DNA of 64,000 nt from an uncultured Acidobacteriota bacterium (GCA_963823445.1 CAWGLT010000015.1:70520-134519), one strand, 5' to 3'. Counted from the first letter of the stretch, positions 11,401 to 48,514 are shown. Numbers and translations are program-made. The notes: a model not told the origin generated them from the sequence alone.

Positions 11401-12456
11401 CTATTCCTTTGGCAAGATCGGCCGTCTGAGCTGGAAGCTGCCATCTCGGAGGCGTTCCACCTCGCCGCCGAGTTCGAGATCGAGCAGGGCGGAGTGCACC
11501 TCGGGCACCGAAAGGCCCGAGCGCGTCACGAGTTCGTCGGTGGTGAACCGCTCTCCGGCGGAAACGTGCGCCAGCAAGGGGTGGGCGGCGGCCGTCGGCT
11601 CCTCCCCCGGAGGGGCTTCATGTCCGATGGCGTCGAGCACATCTCGAGGGCTGAGCATGGGCCGCGCGCCCAGACACAGCAGGGTGTTGGGGCCGGTCGA
11701 CACCTCCGAGAGGATGCTCCCCGGCACCGCGAGAACTTCGCGGCCCTCATCAAGGGCGAGTCTTGCTGTGATGAGCGCGCCGGATCGGGCGGCAGCCTCA
11801 ACGACGACGACCGCTCGGGCAAGCCCGGCGAGGATCCGGTTTCGCTCGGGAAAATGGTGCGGCCGCGGCGAAGTTCCCGGGAGGTATTCGGTAATAAGCG
11901 CGCCACACGTGGAGATTGTGCCAGCAAGTTCCTTGTGTTCAGGAGGATAGACGTGATCGGGTCCGGCACCCCACACCGCCCAGGTGGGCCCGCCTGCCGC
12001 AATGGCGCCTTCGTGGGCAGCAGCATCGACCCCCCGTGCCATCCCCGACGCAACGACGACCCCGGCCCGGGCGAGCTCCTCTCCCAAGACCCGCGCGACC
12101 TGTTTTCCATAGCTCGTCGCGCGCCTCGAGCCCACCACCGCCACCACCGGCGCCGGACGCAACTCGCCGCGGACAAAGAGCCCGAGCGGAGGGTCCGCGG
12201 TCTGCTCGAGCGCGCTCGGATAACCGGCATCACCGGGCACGAGCCAGCGCCAGCCCTCCCGTTTGACCCACCCGAGAACCCTCGGCACCTCGTCATCGAG
12301 GAAACGAGCGACCTCGGTCTTGAGGGCGGCCGGCGCCTGAGCCCAGAGTTGTCCCTCCCTGCCCTCGTCGCCGGCCACGAGACGCCGAATCTTCTGTCCG
12401 CCTCCGGCAAGAAGGAGGGCAAGACGGAGACGGGGTTGGTGGCTCGGCGTCGCCAT
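11401..12456 (-). CDS. dprA: DNA processing protein DprA (Smf)
   Basis: 351 aa with GYPSALEQTADPPLGLFVRG, VAVVGSRRATSYG and GMARGVDAAAH motifs. Confidence 0.85.
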   Translation of the reverse strand: MATPSHQPRLRLALLLAGGGQKIRRLVAGDEGREGQLWAQAPAALKTEVARFLDDEVPRVLGWVKREGWRWLVPGDAGYPSALEQTADPPLGLFVRGELRPAPVVAVVGSRRATSYGKQVARVLGEELARAGVVVASGMARGVDAAAHEGAIAAGGPTWAVWGAGPDHVYPPEHKELAGTISTCGALITEYLPGTSPRPHHFPERNRILAGLARAVVVVEAAARSGALITARLALDEGREVLAVPGSILSEVSTGPNTLLCLGARPMLSPRDVLDAIGHEAPPGEEPTAAAHPLLAHVSAGERFTTDELVTRSGLSVPEVHSALLDLELGGEVERLRDGSFQLRRPILPKE

Positions 12457-33285: not shown

Positions 33286-33665
33286 TGGTGCGTTCAGCAG
33301 AAACGCTCAATGGATTCGTCGACTCGGGTTGCACCATCAAGGGCGAGCTCGAATTTTCGAATTCCTTTCGGGTCGATGGTCTGGTGGAAGGCACGGTTCG
33401 TTCGCGATCCGAGCTCGTCATCGGTGAGGACGGGACCGTCGACGGTGAAATCGACGTCGCCCGCTGTCTTGTCGGCGGCCAGGTCCGGGGAACGATCAAG
33501 GCCAGCGAGAAGGTCGTTCTGCACGCCTCGGCCAAGGTCTTCGGCGAAATCCACGCACCCGCGGTGGTCATGGAGGATGGCGCCTTCCTCGAGGGCAAGG
33601 TCGACATGGCGGCCCGAGCCAAGAAGGCAACACCGCCGGCGAAGGGCGAAGGCGCCAAGGGTTGA
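33285..33665 (+). CDS. bactofilin family cytoskeletal protein
   Basis: About 126 aa with repetitive beta-helix windings (V.G.V....L.IG..G.V.G.I). The ATG overlaps the parB TGA (TGATG). Confidence 0.85.
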   Translation: MVRSAETLNGFVDSGCTIKGELEFSNSFRVDGLVEGTVRSRSELVIGEDGTVDGEIDVARCLVGGQVRGTIKASEKVVLHASAKVFGEIHAPAVVMEDGAFLEGKVDMAARAKKATPPAKGEGAKG

Positions 33666-33720
33666 GAGCAAGGCTGCTGGTCGACGCTGCCGCTGAATCC
33701 TGTCGCTGCCCCGGAACCTG

Positions 33721-33980
33721 CCCTCATCGCCGGCCTTCTGGGCCGCTGTGACGCATTGGCGTCCCGGCGGCCCAGCGTCGCACCATCGGCGTGGTCGCGC
33801 GTGGGTTGATTGAGAGGCTCGGACCACGCCGATGGCGCGCCGGCGGCCTGCCTCGTAGCCGGGAGAGCAGACCGCATCGCGCTCCCCGCGGGAGCCCGGT
33901 CGGCATTTGTGCTGGGCGGGCCGCTCCGCCGAGAGGTCGTTCCGGCACAAATGCGGACCCGGCACCCCGTTGGGGCGGGG
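33721..33980 (+). repeat. structured repeat, full copy A1 (about 250 nt; tail to hairpin orientation arbitrarily called +)
   Basis: Hand alignment of its reverse complement to 40516-40766 gives about 26 mismatches in about 250 nt. It contains the hairpin GCATTTGTGC (33903) / GCACAAATGC (33945). Confidence 0.8.
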
Positions 33981-34060
33981 TTTTTCGGGTTTCCTTGACG
34001 CGCATTGTCTTCGTGCCTCGAGTGAACGCGGTATTGGCCTCGAACGGACGTGCCGTCTCA

Positions 34061-34199
34061 AACCGATTTTGGGATGGCGTACCGTCCCGGAGCGTGACGC
34101 GTTTCGGGCCCAAACATCGTTTGAGGGGGCACTCTCGGGGAGCGCGATGGGAGAATCTCGTTGGAGGCGCGTGCCGGAAGCGGTCCGCCGTGATTGGTT
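34061..34199 (-). repeat. structured repeat, degenerate truncated copy A2 (hairpin module plus CTCGGGGAGCGCGATG)
   Basis: Hairpin arms CGATTTTGGG (34064) / CCCAAACATCG (34109) around a 35-nt loop containing CGGAGCG, followed by CTCGGGGAGCGCGATG as in copy B2. Confidence 0.5.
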
Positions 34200-34262
34200 C
34201 CCTCATCGCCGGCCTTCTGCGCTACCGTGGCCCTCGATGCCGGAACCCGCACCGGCGATGGG
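34200..34262 (+). repeat. structured repeat, tail fragment A3
   Basis: CCCTCATCGCCGGCCTTCTG is identical to the first 20 nt of A1, followed by a diverged continuation. Confidence 0.5.
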
Positions 34263-34364
34263 ACACTTCTATCCTGCATCCTGATCCACGGTCTCTGTAT
34301 CACGCGATTCGCCTCCAGATTCGGCGCCAAACCCAAAGAAAACCGTCCTTGTGAAAAAAAAATC

Positions 34365-34394
34365 TTGACTCTTTGCGAAATCCTGCGGTAATTT
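34365..34394 (+). promoter_or_regulatory. putative sigma70-type promoter of the atp operon
   Basis: A-tract (GTGAAAAAAAAATC), then TTGACT, 18-nt spacer, TAATTT, about 47 nt upstream of the atpF' ATG. Confidence 0.5.
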
Positions 34395-34440
34395 GAGTCG
34401 CCCTGCAAAGAGGCGGGAGTGCCAAGGCCAGGAGCCGCGG

Positions 34441-34872
34441 ATGCAACCTCCGAATTTATCGCTGATCATCGTCATGGTGTGTTTCTGGTTGACCTTTTGG
34501 TTGATCCAGAGATTCCTCCTCAAACCGGTCGGTGCCGTACTCGCCGAACGCCGTGGTCGGATCGAGGGTGCCGAGAAAGAGTGGCAGTCGAAACACCAGG
34601 AATATCTGGCTGAGACGGCTCGCCTCGAAACCGAACTCGGAGAAGCCGCGAAGGCGGCGGCCGCGGTTCGCAACGGGCTCCAGCAGGAGGCCCTCGATCG
34701 GCGCCAGGCAACCCTCGACGCGGCCCGCCAGATCGCCGACGGCAGGCTCGATGAAGCCATGGCGGTGCTCGACAACGAGGCCGCCAAAGCGCGCGCCGAT
34801 CTCAAGGCTCAGGCAGGTGAACTCGCTCGGGCTTTTGCGAGCCAGCTCCTCGGCAGGGAGGTTTCCCGGTGA
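34441..34872 (+). CDS. atpF: F0F1 ATP synthase subunit b' (second b-type stalk subunit)
   Basis: Start at the ATG giving MQPPNLSLIIVMV, with AGGAG upstream. One N-terminal TM helix plus a long charged A/E/R-rich helix. First gene of the operon. Confidence 0.75.
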   Translation: MQPPNLSLIIVMVCFWLTFWLIQRFLLKPVGAVLAERRGRIEGAEKEWQSKHQEYLAETARLETELGEAAKAAAAVRNGLQQEALDRRQATLDAARQIADGRLDEAMAVLDNEAAKARADLKAQAGELARAFASQLLGREVSR

Positions 34873-35447
34873 AGGACAAGCTCTTCTGGGTTCTGGCCTT
34901 TGTTGTCTTCTTGGTTTTGGCCTTCCTCGTCGACGAGCCGCGACAACCTTCGTTTCTCCCCAGCGCTGCGATTCGGGTCCTTCTCGCAGCCAACCTCACG
35001 CTCTTCCTCTTTCTCCTGAACAAATTTGTCGGCCAACCCGTCAACGAGACCCTCAAGGCTCGCGGTGAGGGCGTCAAGGAGGAGCTTGCCGAGGCCCGCA
35101 GGAAGCTCGCCGAGGCAGAGACCCTTCGCTCGGAAGTCAGCGAACGCCTCGCCAGGGTCGAAGCGGAAGTCAAGGAGATTCAAGAACGGGCGGAAGCTCT
35201 CGGCAAGACCGAAGCGGAAAAGATCGACGCCCAGGCTCGCGAAGACGAAGCGAGATTCATGCGCCGCGTCGATGATCAGATTGCTCGCCGTCAGGCCGAA
35301 ACCCGCGAGCAGCTCGCGAAGGACACCGCGGCGTTGACCGAGCAGCTGACCAAAGAACTCCTGCAGGCGACCATGACCGAGAAAGACCAGCAGCGGGTGC
35401 TCGACCGCAGTCTCGGCGCCCTCGAAAACCTCGCGGATAAGGAGTGA
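34869..35447 (+). CDS. atpF: F0F1 ATP synthase subunit b
   Basis: 192 aa. GTGA overlap with the previous gene. TM segment plus an extended coiled helix. Confidence 0.8.
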   Translation: MKDKLFWVLAFVVFLVLAFLVDEPRQPSFLPSAAIRVLLAANLTLFLFLLNKFVGQPVNETLKARGEGVKEELAEARRKLAEAETLRSEVSERLARVEAEVKEIQERAEALGKTEAEKIDAQAREDEARFMRRVDDQIARRQAETREQLAKDTAALTEQLTKELLQATMTEKDQQRVLDRSLGALENLADKE

Positions 35448-35449
35448 CC

Positions 35450-36001
35450 ATGTCTCGATTCAGAGCCATGCCCTACGCGAAGGCGCTCCTCGAAGTGGTT
35501 CGGGACCAGTGTCCGGAGCGAAAAGAGGCCGTGATCGACGAGCTCAACGGGGTTGCGACAGCCCTCAAGGAGGTGCCCGATTTCGAGCGCGTGCTCGTCA
35601 CGCCCATGGTCGACACCGACACCAAGACCGTCATCCTCGACCAGGTCCTCGACAATCTCGGGATCACCCAACCGGTCCGCCGTTTCTGCCATGTTGTCCA
35701 GCGCCACTATCGCATGCTGCACATGCGCGACATCGCCATTACCTATCGGGACCTGGTCGACCGCGAATTCGGTCGCGCCCGGGCCCATGTCGAGCTTGCC
35801 ACGGCCTATGACGAGGCTGACCGTCGTCGGATCGCCGAGGTCATGAGCGCCGTGACGGGGACCGCCGTGGTCGCCGATTTCGTCCACAACCCGGAGCTTC
35901 TCGCCGGCTTCAAGGTCCAGGTTGGTTCCAAGGTCTTCGACGGGTCGCTCGTCGGACAGGTGAATCGGCTGAGCCGGCAAACCGTCATCGAACAGGGGTA
36001 G
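35450..36001 (+). CDS. atpH: F0F1 ATP synthase subunit delta (OSCP)
   Basis: Starts [22 protein letters not shown] lies about 5 nt upstream. A GTG at 35444 is an alternative start. Confidence 0.85.
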
Positions 36002-36005
36002 CAAT

Positions 36006-37530
<1,525 letters not shown>

Positions 37531-37544
<14 letters not shown>

Positions 37545-38394
37545 GGATCTCACCCGTCGAATCCGCTCCGTCAAGGGCACCCAGCAGATCACCAAGGCCA
37601 TGAAGATGGTGGCTGCGGCCAAGCTGCGGCGTGCGCAGCAGGCGGTGACCAACGCCCGGCCCTACGCCGACACGTTGTCGAAGGTGCTGGCCAACGTCGC
37701 GGCCAGGACCGAGGAGAGCCACCCGTTGCTCGAACGTCGTGAAGGTGGCCAAACCTGGTTGGTGGTCGTTTCGTCCGACAAGGGTCTGTGCGGTTCCTTC
37801 AATGCCAACCTCCTCCGCCAGATCGAGAAGGATCTCAAAAAGAAGCGGTGGCCCGATGTCGAGCTGATCCTCATCGGTCGCAAGGCCTCGGACTATTTCA
37901 AGGTCCGCGAGTTCCCGGTTGCCCACCAGGAGCGGGACACCATGAACCGTCTCACCGCTGCGGATGGGCCGCGGCTCGGTTCCATGTTCATGGAAGCCTT
38001 CACGTCGGGACAGGTCGACGAGGTGTGGATCGCGTACAACAAGTTCGTCAGTGTTCTCCGGCAGGAGATCACCATCGAGCAGTTGCTGCCCATCCAGCCA
38101 CCCGAAGCCGACCCGAACGCCGACGATGCAGGGACCGACTATCTTTACGAGCCCAACGCGGAGGGTTTACTGGCTGCATTGCTGCCGGCCTATGTCGAGA
38201 CCGAGATCCAGACGGTGCTCTACGACTCGGCCGCGGCCGAGCAGGCATCCCGGATGACCTCCATGGGGGCCGCCACCAAGAACGCCGGCGAGATGATCGA
38301 CGCCCTGACGATGCTCTACAACCGCACCCGCCAGGCCGCCATCACCAAGGAGTTGATCGAGATTGTTTCCGGCGCGCAAGCGCTCGGTGACTGA
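37531..38394 (+). CDS. atpG: F0F1 ATP synthase subunit gamma
   Basis: TTG start with GGAGG upstream. N-terminus [35 protein letters not shown]. Confidence 0.9.
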
Positions 38395-38398
38395 CTAG

Positions 38399-39853
<1,455 letters not shown>

Positions 39854-39854
39854 G

Positions 39855-40265
39855 ATGGCCAACCGGCTGCACCTCGAAATCGTGACTCCAAGCCGCCGAG
39901 TGGTGGAAGTGGCGGTCGACGAGGTGCGTCTCCCGGGCGCCCTCGGAGAGATGGGTGTTCTGCCCGGCCATATCCCGCTTCTGACCTCTCTCGCCGCCGG
40001 TCCGCTGACCTATTTCGACGGTTCCAAGGTGGTCCGGTACGCGGTCCAGGGCGGTTTTGCCGAGGTTCTTCCCGATCGGGTGACGGTTCTGGCCACGGTC
40101 GCCAAGGCGCCGGCCGACATCGATGTCGCCGCCGCAAGGAGCAATCTCCAGGCTGCCCAGGAGAAGCTCAAGGACGCCGCCGCCGAGGAGCTCGATGAGC
40201 TGACCGTTGTGGTGCGGCTTGCCGAGACCGAGATCGAGGTTGGCGGTGGAGCGACGGTCCACTGA
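39855..40265 (+). CDS. atpC: F0F1 ATP synthase subunit epsilon
   Basis: 136 aa. LHLEIVTPSRRVVEVAVDEVRLPGALGEMGVLPGH is typical of epsilon. Confidence 0.9.
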   Translation: MANRLHLEIVTPSRRVVEVAVDEVRLPGALGEMGVLPGHIPLLTSLAAGPLTYFDGSKVVRYAVQGGFAEVLPDRVTVLATVAKAPADIDVAAARSNLQAAQEKLKDAAAEELDELTVVVRLAETEIEVGGGATVH

Positions 40266-40289
40266 TTTTCATTGCGAGACTGAAACACC

Positions 40290-40320
40290 AACGGCGCCCT
40301 TCAGGGCGCCGTTTGTTTCG
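40290..40320 (+). terminator. rho-independent terminator of the atp operon
   Basis: AACGGCGCCC-TTCA-GGGCGCCGTT followed by TGTTT. Confidence 0.7.
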
Positions 40321-40328
40321 AGGGAGAT

Positions 40329-40413
40329 CCCGCCCAACGGGGTGCCGGGTCCGCATTTGTGCCGGAACGACCTCTCGGCGGAGCGGCCCACTCAGCACAA
40401 ATGCCGACCGGGC
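40329..40413 (-). repeat. structured repeat, solo hairpin module B1
   Basis: About 85 nt, identical to the hairpin end of B2 apart from a 1-nt indel in the leading C-run. Hairpin arms at 40353 and 40395. Confidence 0.8.
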
Positions 40414-40515
40414 CAGCGGCAGGAACCAGCGACCGGGCCAGCATCAGAAACCAGCGATCAGCGACAGCAGCAGCATCCGGAACAGCAACCGAAGCCGCCC
40501 GGGACCCGCGGAATA

Positions 40516-40768
40516 CCCCGCCCCAACGGGGTGCCGGGTCCGCATTTGTGCCGGAACGACCTCTCGGCGGAGCGGCCCACTCAGCACAAATGCCGACCGG
40601 GCTCCCTCGGGGAGCGCGATGAGGTCTGTTGTTCCGGCTACGAGGCAGGCCGCCGGCGTGTCATCGGCGTGGTCGCAGCCCTCCCCGATTCCCCCGCGCG
40701 ACTACGCCGATGGCGCGACGCTGGGTCGCTGGGACGCCAAAGCGTCACAGCGGCCCAGAAGGCCGGTG
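40516..40768 (-). repeat. structured repeat, full copy B2 (inverted relative to A1)
   Basis: About 90% identical to the reverse complement of A1 by hand alignment. Hairpin arms at 40542 and 40584. Confidence 0.8.
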
Positions 40769-40944
40769 CCGAGAACAAGGTCCGGAACAACAGCAGCGAC
40801 GGGGAAAGGGGCCGTATCCGATCCGCGGGCGATAGAACTAACCCGCATCGTTACACCACCAAAGCCGGCAGGACGCCGGCGCTACGAACATCGCAACGCC
40901 CTTTGTCGCACTGCGGGAACGAGGGTCGGTCGCTCTACATGGTT

Positions 40945-41205
40945 CTTTCAGCTCCGGCCTTCTGGTGCGGTGGGTCGCTGGAGCGCCCCATCGCCCCAGC
41001 GTCGCCCGATCAGCGCGGTCGCGCGATGGGGGCCGGAGAGGGCTGCGACCACGCTGATCGAGCGCCGGCGGCCTACCTCGAAGCCGGGAGAACCGATTTG
41101 GAGCGCGCTCCCCGAGGGAGCCCGGTTGGACATTGTGCGGAGCGCGCCGAGTAGATTGGAGGTCGTTCCGGCACAATGTCGAACCCGGCACCCCGATGGG
41201 GCGCG
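40945..41205 (+). repeat. structured repeat, diverged full copy B3 (tail-to-tail with B2)
   Basis: Colinear with A1 but much more diverged, with conserved blocks CCGGCCTTCTGG, CCCAGCGTCGC, GGTCGCGCG, GCGCTCCCCG.GGGAGCCCGGT and GGTCGTTCCGGCACAA. Hairpin arms GACATTGTGC (41129) / GCACAATGTC (41171). Confidence 0.65.
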
Positions 41206-41264
41206 ATCTTTCGCGTGTCCTGTTGCGGCTTCAGCACGGGCACGGTATCGGCCGCGGCCACCGC

Positions 41265-42671
41265 TCACTGATACTCCGCGCCCAGGATGACGCTGACGAT
41301 GATGGCGCCGACGGCGGCCGGGGCGGCGAATCGAATGAGAAAACGCCAGACTCCATGGCTCCATCCCAGCGCCCCGTTCCCCTCCTCGAGCTCGTCCCGA
41401 CTTTCCTTGGCGGTGAGGATCCAGCCCGTGAAAAGGGCGATGAAGAGCCCGCCCACGGGGAGGAGCCAGTTGCTCGCCAGGTAGTCGAGGGTTCCGAAGA
41501 CTCCGGTTGTCGAACCCTTGCCAATGGGGTTGAACGCCGATAGGAACTTAACCCCCCCGACGCTGAGCGCCGACAGAATTCCGAAGAGCCAGATCGACAA
41601 GCCTGTGGTCACCGCGGCCCTGCGCCGAGGCCAGTCGAGTTCGTCGATGGCGTAGCTCGCCACCACCTCGAGCAGGCTGATCGTGCTGGTGAGGGCGGCA
41701 AACGAAACCAGGAGATAGAAGAGCCCACAGATCACGGCTCCACCGGGGAGCTTGAAGAAGAGCACCGGGATGGTGGTGAACAGGATGGTGGAGCTCTTGC
41801 TCACCTCGAAATCGAAGCTGAAGATGATGGAGAACATGATGACGCACGCCATGATGGCAATGAGGGTGTCGAGAACGCAGATGGTCAGGGCGGCGCGCGG
41901 GATCGAATCCTGGCGCCGCATGTAGCTGCCATAGGTCAGCATCGAACCGAGACCGACGCTGAGGGTGAAAAACGAGTGCCCGAGAGCCTCGAGCACCCCG
42001 GCCGCCGTGATCTCGGCGAAGTTGGGCCGGAACAGGAAGGCCAGGGCGCGGCCAAAACCGGGGGTGGTCATGGAATACGCGGCGAGGACGAGCAAAATGG
42101 CGAACAAGAGGGGCATCAGAAGCTTGGCGGCGCGTTCGATCCCCCTACCGATTCCGAAATAGACGACGGCGATGGTCAAGCCCATGAAGAGCGTGTGAAA
42201 CAGAATCTGGGCCCCCGGATCGGCGAGGAAGCCGGAAAAAAAGGCCTCGAGGTCTTCCGGGTGACCGGCAAGTTCACCGAGCGATCCCGAAAAGGCCAGC
42301 AGAATGTACCGCAGGGTCCAGCCGGCGATCATGCTGTAGTAGGAAAGGATGATGAAACCGGCCACGACGCCGAGGTAGCCGACACCCTTCCAGGCCCGGC
42401 CACCCGGCTTTCCGACGCTCAACAGGCCAAACGCCCCCACCGGATTCCGTCGGCTCCTGCGGCCGAGCAGGATCTCGGCTCCCAGGATCGGGGCACCGAC
42501 CACGGCGATGGCGGCGAGATAGACGAGGACGAACGCCCCGCCATCGTTCTCGAGGGTGATGTAGGGAAACTTCCAGAGGTTTCCGAGGCCGATGGCGCTG
42601 CCGGCGGCCGCCAGGACGAAACCCAATCGACCGGTCCATTGCGCTCGTGATGCTGCCATCGATCCCCCCAA
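41265..42671 (-). CDS. sodium-dependent transporter, neurotransmitter:sodium symporter (NSS/SNF) family
   Basis: 468 aa, polytopic, with the N-terminal signature GSAIGLGNLWKFPY. Confidence 0.85.
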   Translation of the reverse strand: MGGSMAASRAQWTGRLGFVLAAAGSAIGLGNLWKFPYITLENDGGAFVLVYLAAIAVVGAPILGAEILLGRRSRRNPVGAFGLLSVGKPGGRAWKGVGYLGVVAGFIILSYYSMIAGWTLRYILLAFSGSLGELAGHPEDLEAFFSGFLADPGAQILFHTLFMGLTIAVVYFGIGRGIERAAKLLMPLLFAILLVLAAYSMTTPGFGRALAFLFRPNFAEITAAGVLEALGHSFFTLSVGLGSMLTYGSYMRRQDSIPRAALTICVLDTLIAIMACVIMFSIIFSFDFEVSKSSTILFTTIPVLFFKLPGGAVICGLFYLLVSFAALTSTISLLEVVASYAIDELDWPRRRAAVTTGLSIWLFGILSALSVGGVKFLSAFNPIGKGSTTGVFGTLDYLASNWLLPVGGLFIALFTGWILTAKESRDELEEGNGALGWSHGVWRFLIRFAAPAAVGAIIVSVILGAEYQ

Positions 42672-42776: not shown

Positions 42777-42853
42777 CGGGGCGTAGCTCAGTCTGGTAGA
42801 GCGCACGGTTCGGGACCGTGAGGCCGGTGGTTCAAGTCCACTCGCCCCGACCA
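42777..42853 (+). tRNA. tRNA-Pro (anticodon CGG)
   Basis: Cloverleaf folded by hand. Acceptor CGGGGCG/CGCCCCG, anticodon stem CACGG/CCGTG with loop TTCGGGA, T-loop TTCAAGT, encoded CCA. Confidence 0.9.
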
Positions 42854-46591: not shown

Positions 46592-46635
46592 CGGTCCCGC
46601 GACCGACGACTCCCGACTCCCGACTCCCGACTCCC
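46592..46635. repeat. left inverted repeat / GACTCCC heptamer array
   Basis: CGGTCCCGCGACCGACGACTCCC (46592-14) is the perfect reverse complement of 47165-47187. GACTCCC then occurs as 4 perfect tandem copies (46608-46635). Confidence 0.8.
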
Positions 46636-46669
46636 GTCCTCTCCCGGACTCCTCATCGAGTGTGACTCC

Positions 46670-47131: not shown

Positions 47132-47187
47132 GAGTCGGGAATCGGGAGTCGGGGGTCGTGAATCGGGAGTCGTCGGTCGCGGGACCG
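47132..47187. repeat. right inverted repeat / GARTCGG heptamer array
   Basis: GAGTCGG GAATCGG GAGTCGG GGGTCGT GAATCGG GAGTCGT CGGTCGC, seven phased units. The last 23 nt are perfectly complementary to 46592-46614. Confidence 0.8.
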
Positions 47188-48337: not shown

Positions 48338-48413
48338 GGGCCGTTAGCTCAATTGGCAGAGCAAGTGACTCTTAATCACTAGGTTGGAGGTTCGATTCCT
48401 CCACGGCTCACCA
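48338..48413 (+). tRNA. tRNA-Lys (anticodon CTT)
   Basis: Hand-folded cloverleaf. Acceptor GGGCCGT/ACGGCTC, anticodon stem AGTGA/TCACT with loop CTCTTAA, T-arm GGAGG-TTCGATT-CCTCC, encoded CCA. Confidence 0.9.
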
Positions 48414-48428
48414 TTTCCTTTCATCCGC

Positions 48429-48514
48429 GCGAAAGTGGCGGAACCGGTAGACGCGCGAGATTTAGGATCTCGTGGGGGCACCCCGTGGGGGTTCGATTCC
48501 CCCCTTTCGCACCA
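48429..48514 (+). tRNA. tRNA-Leu (anticodon TAG), class II with long variable arm
   Basis: Acceptor GCGAAAG/CTTTCGC, anticodon stem CGAGA/TCTCG with loop TTTAGGA, variable arm GGGGCACCCC, T-arm GGGGG-TTCGATT-CCCCC, encoded CCA. Confidence 0.9.

Follow-up and report, generated by a model that had tools for sequence, protein, structure and literature searches.

A modular, structured repeat family around the atp operon of an uncultured Acidobacteriota bacterium and its link to a PF05635 gene

Introduction

The BIME and REP elements of enterobacteria and pseudomonads are extragenic and palindromic, form direct and inverted clusters with linker motifs, are mosaic in composition and vary in presence between relatives. 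The repeat family described here, found in the spacers on both sides of an atp operon in an uncultured Acidobacteriota bacterium, shares all of these traits. REPs, however, are single hairpins of 20–40 nt tied to RAYT, whereas the present unit comprises four helices and a junction in 270 nt, is tied to a PF05635 gene and shows strand-specific covariation. The pneumococcal BOX elements (boxA, n × boxB, boxC) are likewise modular and intergenic, contain an internal module that can be repeated in tandem (M3 in the present family), have stable predicted folds and encode no transposase; their modules are much shorter (45–59 nt), there is no sequence relation, and we know of no protein-coding complete form of BOX.

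MITEs (Correia, ERIC, RUP etc.) are non-coding derivatives that lie between genes in many copies and are more numerous than a longer form with a gene, as is the case here. Unlike these IS-derived elements with terminal inverted repeats (TIRs) and target-site duplications (TSDs), the present unit has no TIRs, no target duplication was found, and the only longer form found encodes a four-helix-bundle PF05635 protein instead of a transposase. PATEs of the IS200/IS605 type come closer in their hairpin-rich ends and in that neither TIRs nor target duplications are seen, but the present units occur in both orientations within single intergenic regions (B2/B3, L105, L076, L008). Integron attC sites, including those of CALINs, are single imperfect hairpins of 57–141 nt with R/L core sites at cassette 3' ends, in contrast to a 270-nt, multi-helix unit; conserved RYYYAAC/GTTRRRY ends are not visible in the unit alignment.

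Two further systems involve relatives of the PF05635 protein. In diversity-generating retroelements (DGRs), an Avd-fold gene has a structured RNA, a few hundred nucleotides long, encoded right after it in the same direction (the avd-TR-spacer RNA); the complex of Avd and reverse transcriptase (RT) binds this RNA. The gene-carrying form of the present family has the same layout, but it has no adjacent RT, no pair of template and variable repeats and no adenine-specific variation, and its RNA module has been amplified to many solo copies. Intervening sequences of 23S rRNA carry a PF05635 ORF in Leptospira, Coxiella and other bacteria; the complete units, and only these, similarly place such an ORF in a small element bounded by long, would-be RNase III helices. 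Those intervening sequences lie inside 23S rRNA helices, whereas the present units lie in ordinary intergenic DNA, and searches of the window and of 96 kb of gene-carrying loci revealed no rRNA. We found no account in the literature that could be searched of this repeat family, nor of an Avd-like gene paired with an RNA where a reverse transcriptase is lacking.

Repeat copies on both sides of the atp operon

The DNA analysed, called the window below, is a stretch of 64,000 nt from an uncultured Acidobacteriota bacterium (GCA_963823445.1 CAWGLT010000015.1:70520-134519). Its repeat tract is bounded by the atpC stop codon at 40265 and by the end of an NSS/SNF transporter gene on the minus strand at 41265; the atpC terminator hairpin occupies 40287–40316 and the first repeat, B1, comes directly after it. 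The original prediction had placed three elements in this tract, B1, B2 and B3, with coordinates that are right to within a few bases. Another copy, A, sits in the spacer that separates the atp operon from the bactofilin gene, so that the operon is bracketed by these elements, with copy A upstream and the B copies downstream. The features are as follows.

33666–33718, minus strand: 3' tail of copy A, hexamer-type low complexity that abuts the bactofilin stop codon (read from the sequence and by comparison with the empty L131 site)
33719–33988, minus strand: copy A, full 270-nt unit (unit positions 2–271; nhmmer E = 7e-82)
34034–34179, minus strand: module X, a spacer module found 3' of units in other loci, with a degenerate M1-like stretch inside
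34199–34223, minus strand: unit remnant, the last ~25 nt of another unit (…CAGAAGGCCGGCGATGAGGG)
40324–40413, plus strand: B1, M1 only, unit positions 6–96, the 5' long hairpin (nhmmer)
40414–40507, plus strand: B1 tail and B2 5' leader, C/A-rich low complexity with a 25-nt tandem repeat
40508–40777, plus strand: B2, full unit with the M1 hairpin and the Y-shaped M2 domain (nhmmer E = 3.5e-86)
40824–40909, plus strand: M3, one copy of a 96-nt hairpin-rich module whose tandem arrays elsewhere adjoin the unit
40943–41214, minus strand: B3, diverged full unit 3' of the NSS/SNF transporter gene (nhmmer E = 1.3e-79)

A profile built from 117 copies sets the limits at 40331–40413 for B1, 40516–40773 for B2 and 41205–40944 for B3. 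B1 had been described as matching the hairpin end of B2 except for one indel, and so it does: 40333–40413 and 40522–40602 are identical at 81/81 positions, and extending the comparison to 86 nt gives 98.8% identity and one indel. B3 is, as proposed, a diverged copy of B2 in the opposite orientation, placed tail-to-tail with it; the two inverted copies are 76.6% identical over 273 nt, and seven base pairs are altered on both sides with pairing kept. Copy A is 88% identical to B2.

The tract was said to hold no credible ORF, which codon-position composition bears out: long ORFs across it have GC2 of 0.62–0.73 and GC3 of 0.64–0.72, as against 0.41–0.48 and 0.74–0.85 in the flanking real genes, ruling out a coding reading. 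No sigma-70-like promoter was found in the tract in a promoter and terminator scan of 33600–41400. Elsewhere in the window, two heptamer tandem arrays (CGACTCC × 4.3 at 46607–46636 and GAGTCGG × 5.9 at 47132–47179), mutual reverse complements when rotation is allowed, flank ~500 nt, and tRNA genes lie at 42777–42850, 48338–48410 and 48429–48511.

Modules and their surroundings

The unit consists of two modules. M1 (approximately positions 1–96) is a long hairpin in which a G•G mismatch is conserved. In M2, an invariant GGCC/GGCC helix closes a junction from which a 22-bp hairpin and a terminal hairpin extend, the latter differing in length between subfamilies. M1 occurs alone, as in B1, and so does M2 (L002, L092), in keeping with the suggestion of a modular, BIME- or MITE-like pile-up; truncated and internally deleted copies are common. 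At ~270 nt, the unit is indeed too long for a REP.

Several further modules accompany the unit. The 80 nt that precede B2 also stand 5' of copies in five other loci (L002, L010, L006, L007, L003). The M3 copy of the window is 86% identical to an array of 7.3 copies of 96 nt (L009 522–1221) and to the copies in L005, and M3 is found 3' of units in L001, L002 and L008. Module X, which holds a weak profile match at 34034–34152, is 90% identical to L132 8947–9092 and also matches L001 4510–4712 and L067 529–672. M3 arrays with 98% internal identity adjoin the 270-nt unit in L009 (522–1221) and L005 (~100–385), the former ending in an internally deleted unit.

Leader and tail are C/A-rich stretches of 80–100 nt with hexamer rather than codon periodicity: autocorrelation in the unit flanks peaks at 6 and 12 and lacks peaks at 3 and 9. 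Tandem Repeats Finder (TRF) reports a period of 25 over 40405–40473, in the B1 tail and B2 leader. Hexamer tracts stand on both sides of units (L095 1186–1327, L044 925–1035, L058 ~11880–11990, window 40405–40500), and the hexamer differs per locus, e.g., (AGCCGG)n, (CCGTGA)n or CAGCGA-type. On the reverse strand, these tracts come after a Shine-Dalgarno motif and ATG in the left arm of a palindrome (described below) and would read (GS)n, (GH)n or (PE)n. An ORF resembling EpmA, i.e., lysyl-tRNA-synthetase-like, contains in-frame (GS)n and (SD)n tracts (L039 227–1363), so hexamer microsatellites occur inside genes too in these genomes.

A conserved fold with a defined strand

The proposal that the repeat is structured is supported both by the fold of B2 itself (−153 kcal/mol, z = −6.3) and by pairing across the family. 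The latter was assessed in a structure-blind MAFFT alignment (A3) of 117 non-redundant full copies; these were full-length and high-scoring, so that decayed copies are under-sampled. At the 73 consensus pairs, 89.6% of cells are paired, compared with 35–51% when the partners are slid by 1–3 columns. Pairs changed on both sides number 40, against 27.3±2.3 in shuffled alignments, none of 500 shuffles reaching 40, and compensatory cells number 408 against 125. The 50 core pairs are kept in solo copies (95%) as in gene-linked copies (96%); copy A forms 94% of them and B2 98%.

The covariation is strand-specific. At the 44 pairs predicted on both strands, G-U combinations (175) exceed A-C combinations (39), identifying the B2 (+) sense as the folded strand; since G-T pairs are tolerated in folded single-stranded DNA, the bias fits RNA or one DNA strand. 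The unit ends (…CCCCAACGGGGTGCCGGG, …CCCAGAAGGCCGG) are unrelated, and the inverted repeats that were found are internal stems or whole inverted copies.

A dispersed family in Acidobacteriota and sediment metagenomes

A family rather than a two-locus duplication had been suspected, and the unit is present at least ~190 times in Acidobacteriota MAGs and sediment metagenomes, in 132 loci when the syntenic L131 and L132 are counted with the other 130. Profile search of the window and the 130 loci gave at least 195 matches with E-values reaching 1e-86; a locus often has several, and many fall at contig ends, as is usual for multi-copy repeats. A strict pattern for the 5' hairpin matched 11 times in three Acidobacteriota MAGs, and a pattern for the 3' domain matched at least 120 metagenome stretches, most of them from coastal and marine sediment. 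The scans that built the collection were anchored on M1 and M2, respectively, and the sample is biased accordingly. AtpC homologues put the window among relatives named Thermoanaerobaculales. B1 and B2, 189 nt apart and identical over 81 nt, could by themselves suggest that the similarity is restricted to the window, through local duplication of a segment or by chance, but the copies spread over several genomes, many metagenomes and unrelated gene contexts refute that reading, to which we attach practically no weight.

Searches beyond bacterial chromosomes and among named families were negative in their respective scopes: the M2 pattern has 0 matches in viral contigs (IMG/VR), distant blastn of B2 finds none in plasmids (PLSDB), Rfam 15 reports only three tRNAs at or above the gathering threshold in the window, an E-value scan of 40200–41350 returns sub-threshold noise only, and 20 gene-carrying loci (96 kb) yield 0 Rfam hits. 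These results agree with the earlier failure to recognise the sequence as a named RNA or repeat, and there is no strong match to any known IS, MITE or Rfam family.

The copies lie in intergenic DNA in either orientation, amid genes that are unrelated across loci. Same-strand and opposite-strand cases number 63 and 52 for the 5' neighbour and 54 and 71 for the 3' neighbour. Orientation relative to neighbouring genes is thus about random, which weakens a cis-regulatory or 3'-UTR role tied to those genes and leaves solo copies with no evident source of sense transcription. Two public gene calls in L132 (8426–9115 and 1646–2236; 229 and 196 aa, no Pfam hit) lie entirely over repeat copies and are likely to be spurious annotations caused by the family.

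The complete unit: palindrome, PF05635 gene and element

Clustering of the ORFs near copies picked out a 124-aa protein that matches PF05635 (23S_rRNA_IVP; E = 8e-17) and TIGR02436 (four helix bundle protein; E = 4e-17). tblastn detects the gene, or a 3' remnant of it, in ~21 loci. In ~20 of these, gene and element share a strand and the gene immediately precedes the element; in L098, the search showed no copy downstream of the gene. The gap from the stop codon to the unit is usually 0–30 nt and in a few loci ~200 nt. Palindromes of GTAG type (…GTAGGGTGGGGC…GCCCCACC…), which resemble classical REP sequences, stand between gene and unit in L046 (~1810–2000), L044 and L058 and account for the ~200-nt gaps in some units. 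The 11 intact ORFs have a median dN/dS of 0.18, and the subfamily has more than 3900 homologues, several on one contig.

Upstream of the gene is a 150-nt near-perfect palindrome (−108 kcal/mol, z = −10.7) whose right arm holds the Shine-Dalgarno sequence and start region of the gene, and which is found only together with it. Palindrome, 124-aa gene and 270-nt element on one strand make up a complete unit of ~0.8 kb. The window, in which tblastn finds no PF05635 gene match, contains only copies that are free of gene and palindrome. The original prediction was confined to the repeats in their tract; the PF05635 link, the strand-specific covariation, the extra modules (5' leader, tail, M3 and X) and the empty and filled sites described below go beyond it.

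PF05635 resembles Avd (PMC10053308), and the predicted structure points the same way: in a Foldseek comparison, the model (pLDDT 88.6) is matched best by 2GSC and 2RLD; Avd itself (4DWL) and the Avd chains in DGR RNP structures (8UB7, 8UBE) rank next, with TM of 0.72–0.82. The modelled protein is thus Avd-like by fold. As a structured RNA right after avd is the DGR layout (PMC10053308), and the upstream gene is Avd-like by family as well as by predicted fold, the unit might be taken for a DGR part, i.e., a template repeat and spacer RNA downstream of avd, with the other copies as variable repeats. This reading is largely refuted, and we regard it as very improbable: no RT-sized ORF of fitting position and strand comes after the unit in the 13 loci inspected; variation is not adenine-specific, the entropy of unpaired positions in the 117 copies being 1.31 for A, 1.13 for C, 1.02 for G and 1.19 for T; and solo copies are intergenic instead of standing at the 3' ends of target genes.

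Gain, loss and constraint in close relatives

Two syntenic MAG contigs, L131 and L132, were reached via AtpC homologues (P0002, P0005), their AtpC being 93% and 91% identical, respectively, to that of the window. In L131, the bactofilin-atpF spacer is empty (180 nt) and the atpC-SNF spacer (167 nt) holds only a decayed B1. L132 has two full copies in the upstream spacer and, downstream, a well-kept B1 and a B2 followed by module X; B3 has no counterpart in either relative. No TSD is recognisable, the empty-site junctions of L131 sitting in diverged, low-complexity DNA, and sharp ends cannot be defined at filled versus empty sites. By synteny with L131, the window has gidB-parA-parB-bactofilin directly upstream of the atp operon. 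A promoter-like site, TTGACT-N17-TAATTT after an A-run, lies upstream of the operon at ~34364–34392 in the window and at ~2510–2538 in L131 and is thus kept in filled and empty spacers alike.

Where copies have been retained, they are conserved. In the comparison of the window with L132, identity is 75–77% at the third codon positions of atpD and atpC but 97.9% in the B1-B2 leader and 91.5% in B2; copy A matches its positional counterpart at 90% of paired and 66% of unpaired positions. In each of the two genomes, B1 and the M1 module of B2 share four variants specific to that genome, which indicates concerted evolution of the two elements. Gain and loss of copies thus take little evolutionary time, but the stems are under constraint.

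Such constraint is what would be expected of a structured RNA or DNA that is useful to the host and kept in place rather than selfish, e.g., a 3'-end stabiliser, an insulator or one of multiple genes for an RNA working with the four-helix-bundle protein. Besides the excess of stem over loop conservation, the 91–98% identity of the whole B1-leader-B2 segment against synonymous-type sites, the 95% of core pairs retained by solo copies and the sense orientation of B1/B2 and of B3, each behind one of two convergent genes, favour this explanation. We nevertheless judge it unlikely, given that the close relative L131 does without B2, B3 and copy A and has let its B1 decay, that copy A runs antisense to the genes on either side, that orientation is random family-wide and that truncated and internally deleted copies abound.

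Mobility

The original prediction saw no terminal inverted repeats, target-site duplications or transposase nearby, and the wider search agrees. In 0.75 Mb of flanks (crude gene calling), no reverse transcriptase, transposase or integrase was seen beside units, and the 522 ORFs near copies include no recurrent transposase-like cluster. One subfamily does sit inside a transposase gene: in three metagenome contigs, the unit occupies the place of the absent central (HUH) part of an IS91-family transposase gene (L100 ~560–815, L128 384–625, L063 2270–2513), and this composite is conserved at 82–89% across the three. Since the unit stands in for the centre of a degenerate transposase and the composite is conserved in its entirety, the unit limits read from these loci are only approximate. 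Elsewhere, a single unit is split by an insertion of ~450 nt (L007 2202–2395 and 2844–2931), with ~10 nt of the unit (positions 82–91) on both sides; the doubled stretch may be the target duplication of another mobile element.

These observations bear on the possibility that the element is mobile at the DNA level, its hairpins being recognised as folded single-stranded DNA or cruciforms by a transposase encoded elsewhere (e.g., an HUH Y1/Y2 enzyme), with the PF05635 gene as a passenger. Long palindromic modules, solo copies devoid of coding capacity, intergenic clusters in both orientations, the subfamily inside the degenerate IS91 gene and the small GTAG-type REP palindromes in the same loci are all consistent with such a mechanism, which we nonetheless consider improbable. 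No transposase recurs beside the units, TIRs and target duplications were not found, and opposite orientations within one intergenic region (B2/B3, L105, L076) conflict with the strand-biased insertion of IS200/IS605 elements. A gene that is strictly oriented, tightly spaced and under purifying selection would also be an unusual passenger.

A working model

The reading we prefer, holding belief and doubt in it about equal, is that the tract consists of protein-less copies of a modular, structure-constrained element of Thermoanaerobaculia-type Acidobacteriota that is linked to an Avd-like gene and has spread as a ligand-RNA repeat. The element's active form would be a single folded strand, most probably RNA transcribed together with the four-helix-bundle gene as the 3' portion of one transcript, and this strand would serve as the ligand of an Avd-like pentamer. 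DGRs, in which the Avd-RT complex binds an RNA whose sequence comes right after avd, suggest by analogy that the four-helix-bundle protein may bind this element. As a non-autonomous modular repeat, the unit would have spread through intergenic DNA and undergone reshuffling there, its RNA module more than any other part; the four copies of the window, on either side of the atp operon, would have no specific connection with it. As no RT, transposase, TIR or TSD was found, we can only infer the route of spread, which may be RNA copying by a reverse transcriptase encoded elsewhere, or recombination.

In a bolder version of this model, an RT-less Avd-like pentamer would have the element as its dedicated RNA partner, and the two would constitute a new, small selfish RNP element, possibly RNA-copied by an RT acting in trans; we regard this version as speculative and rather doubtful.

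Implications

In a lineage widespread in sediment and soil, the repeat family interrupts assemblies, gives rise to spurious gene calls and alters the make-up of intergenic regions; the 117-copy alignment is a ready basis for a new RNA or repeat family. Should the element prove to be an ordinary selfish repeat, its value would lie mainly in annotation. PF05635/TIGR02436 proteins are abundant in many bacterial phyla, and to our knowledge Avd of DGRs is the only relative of this fold with a known role. The strictly oriented, tightly spaced link of one PF05635 subfamily to a covariation-supported, multiplied structured element offers a testable hypothesis, by analogy with Avd, that a PF05635 protein may bind the RNA encoded just downstream of its gene. 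If the RNA-partner reading is true, it would provide the first functional handle on the large orphan PF05635 family, whose members would be binders of cis-encoded structured RNAs.
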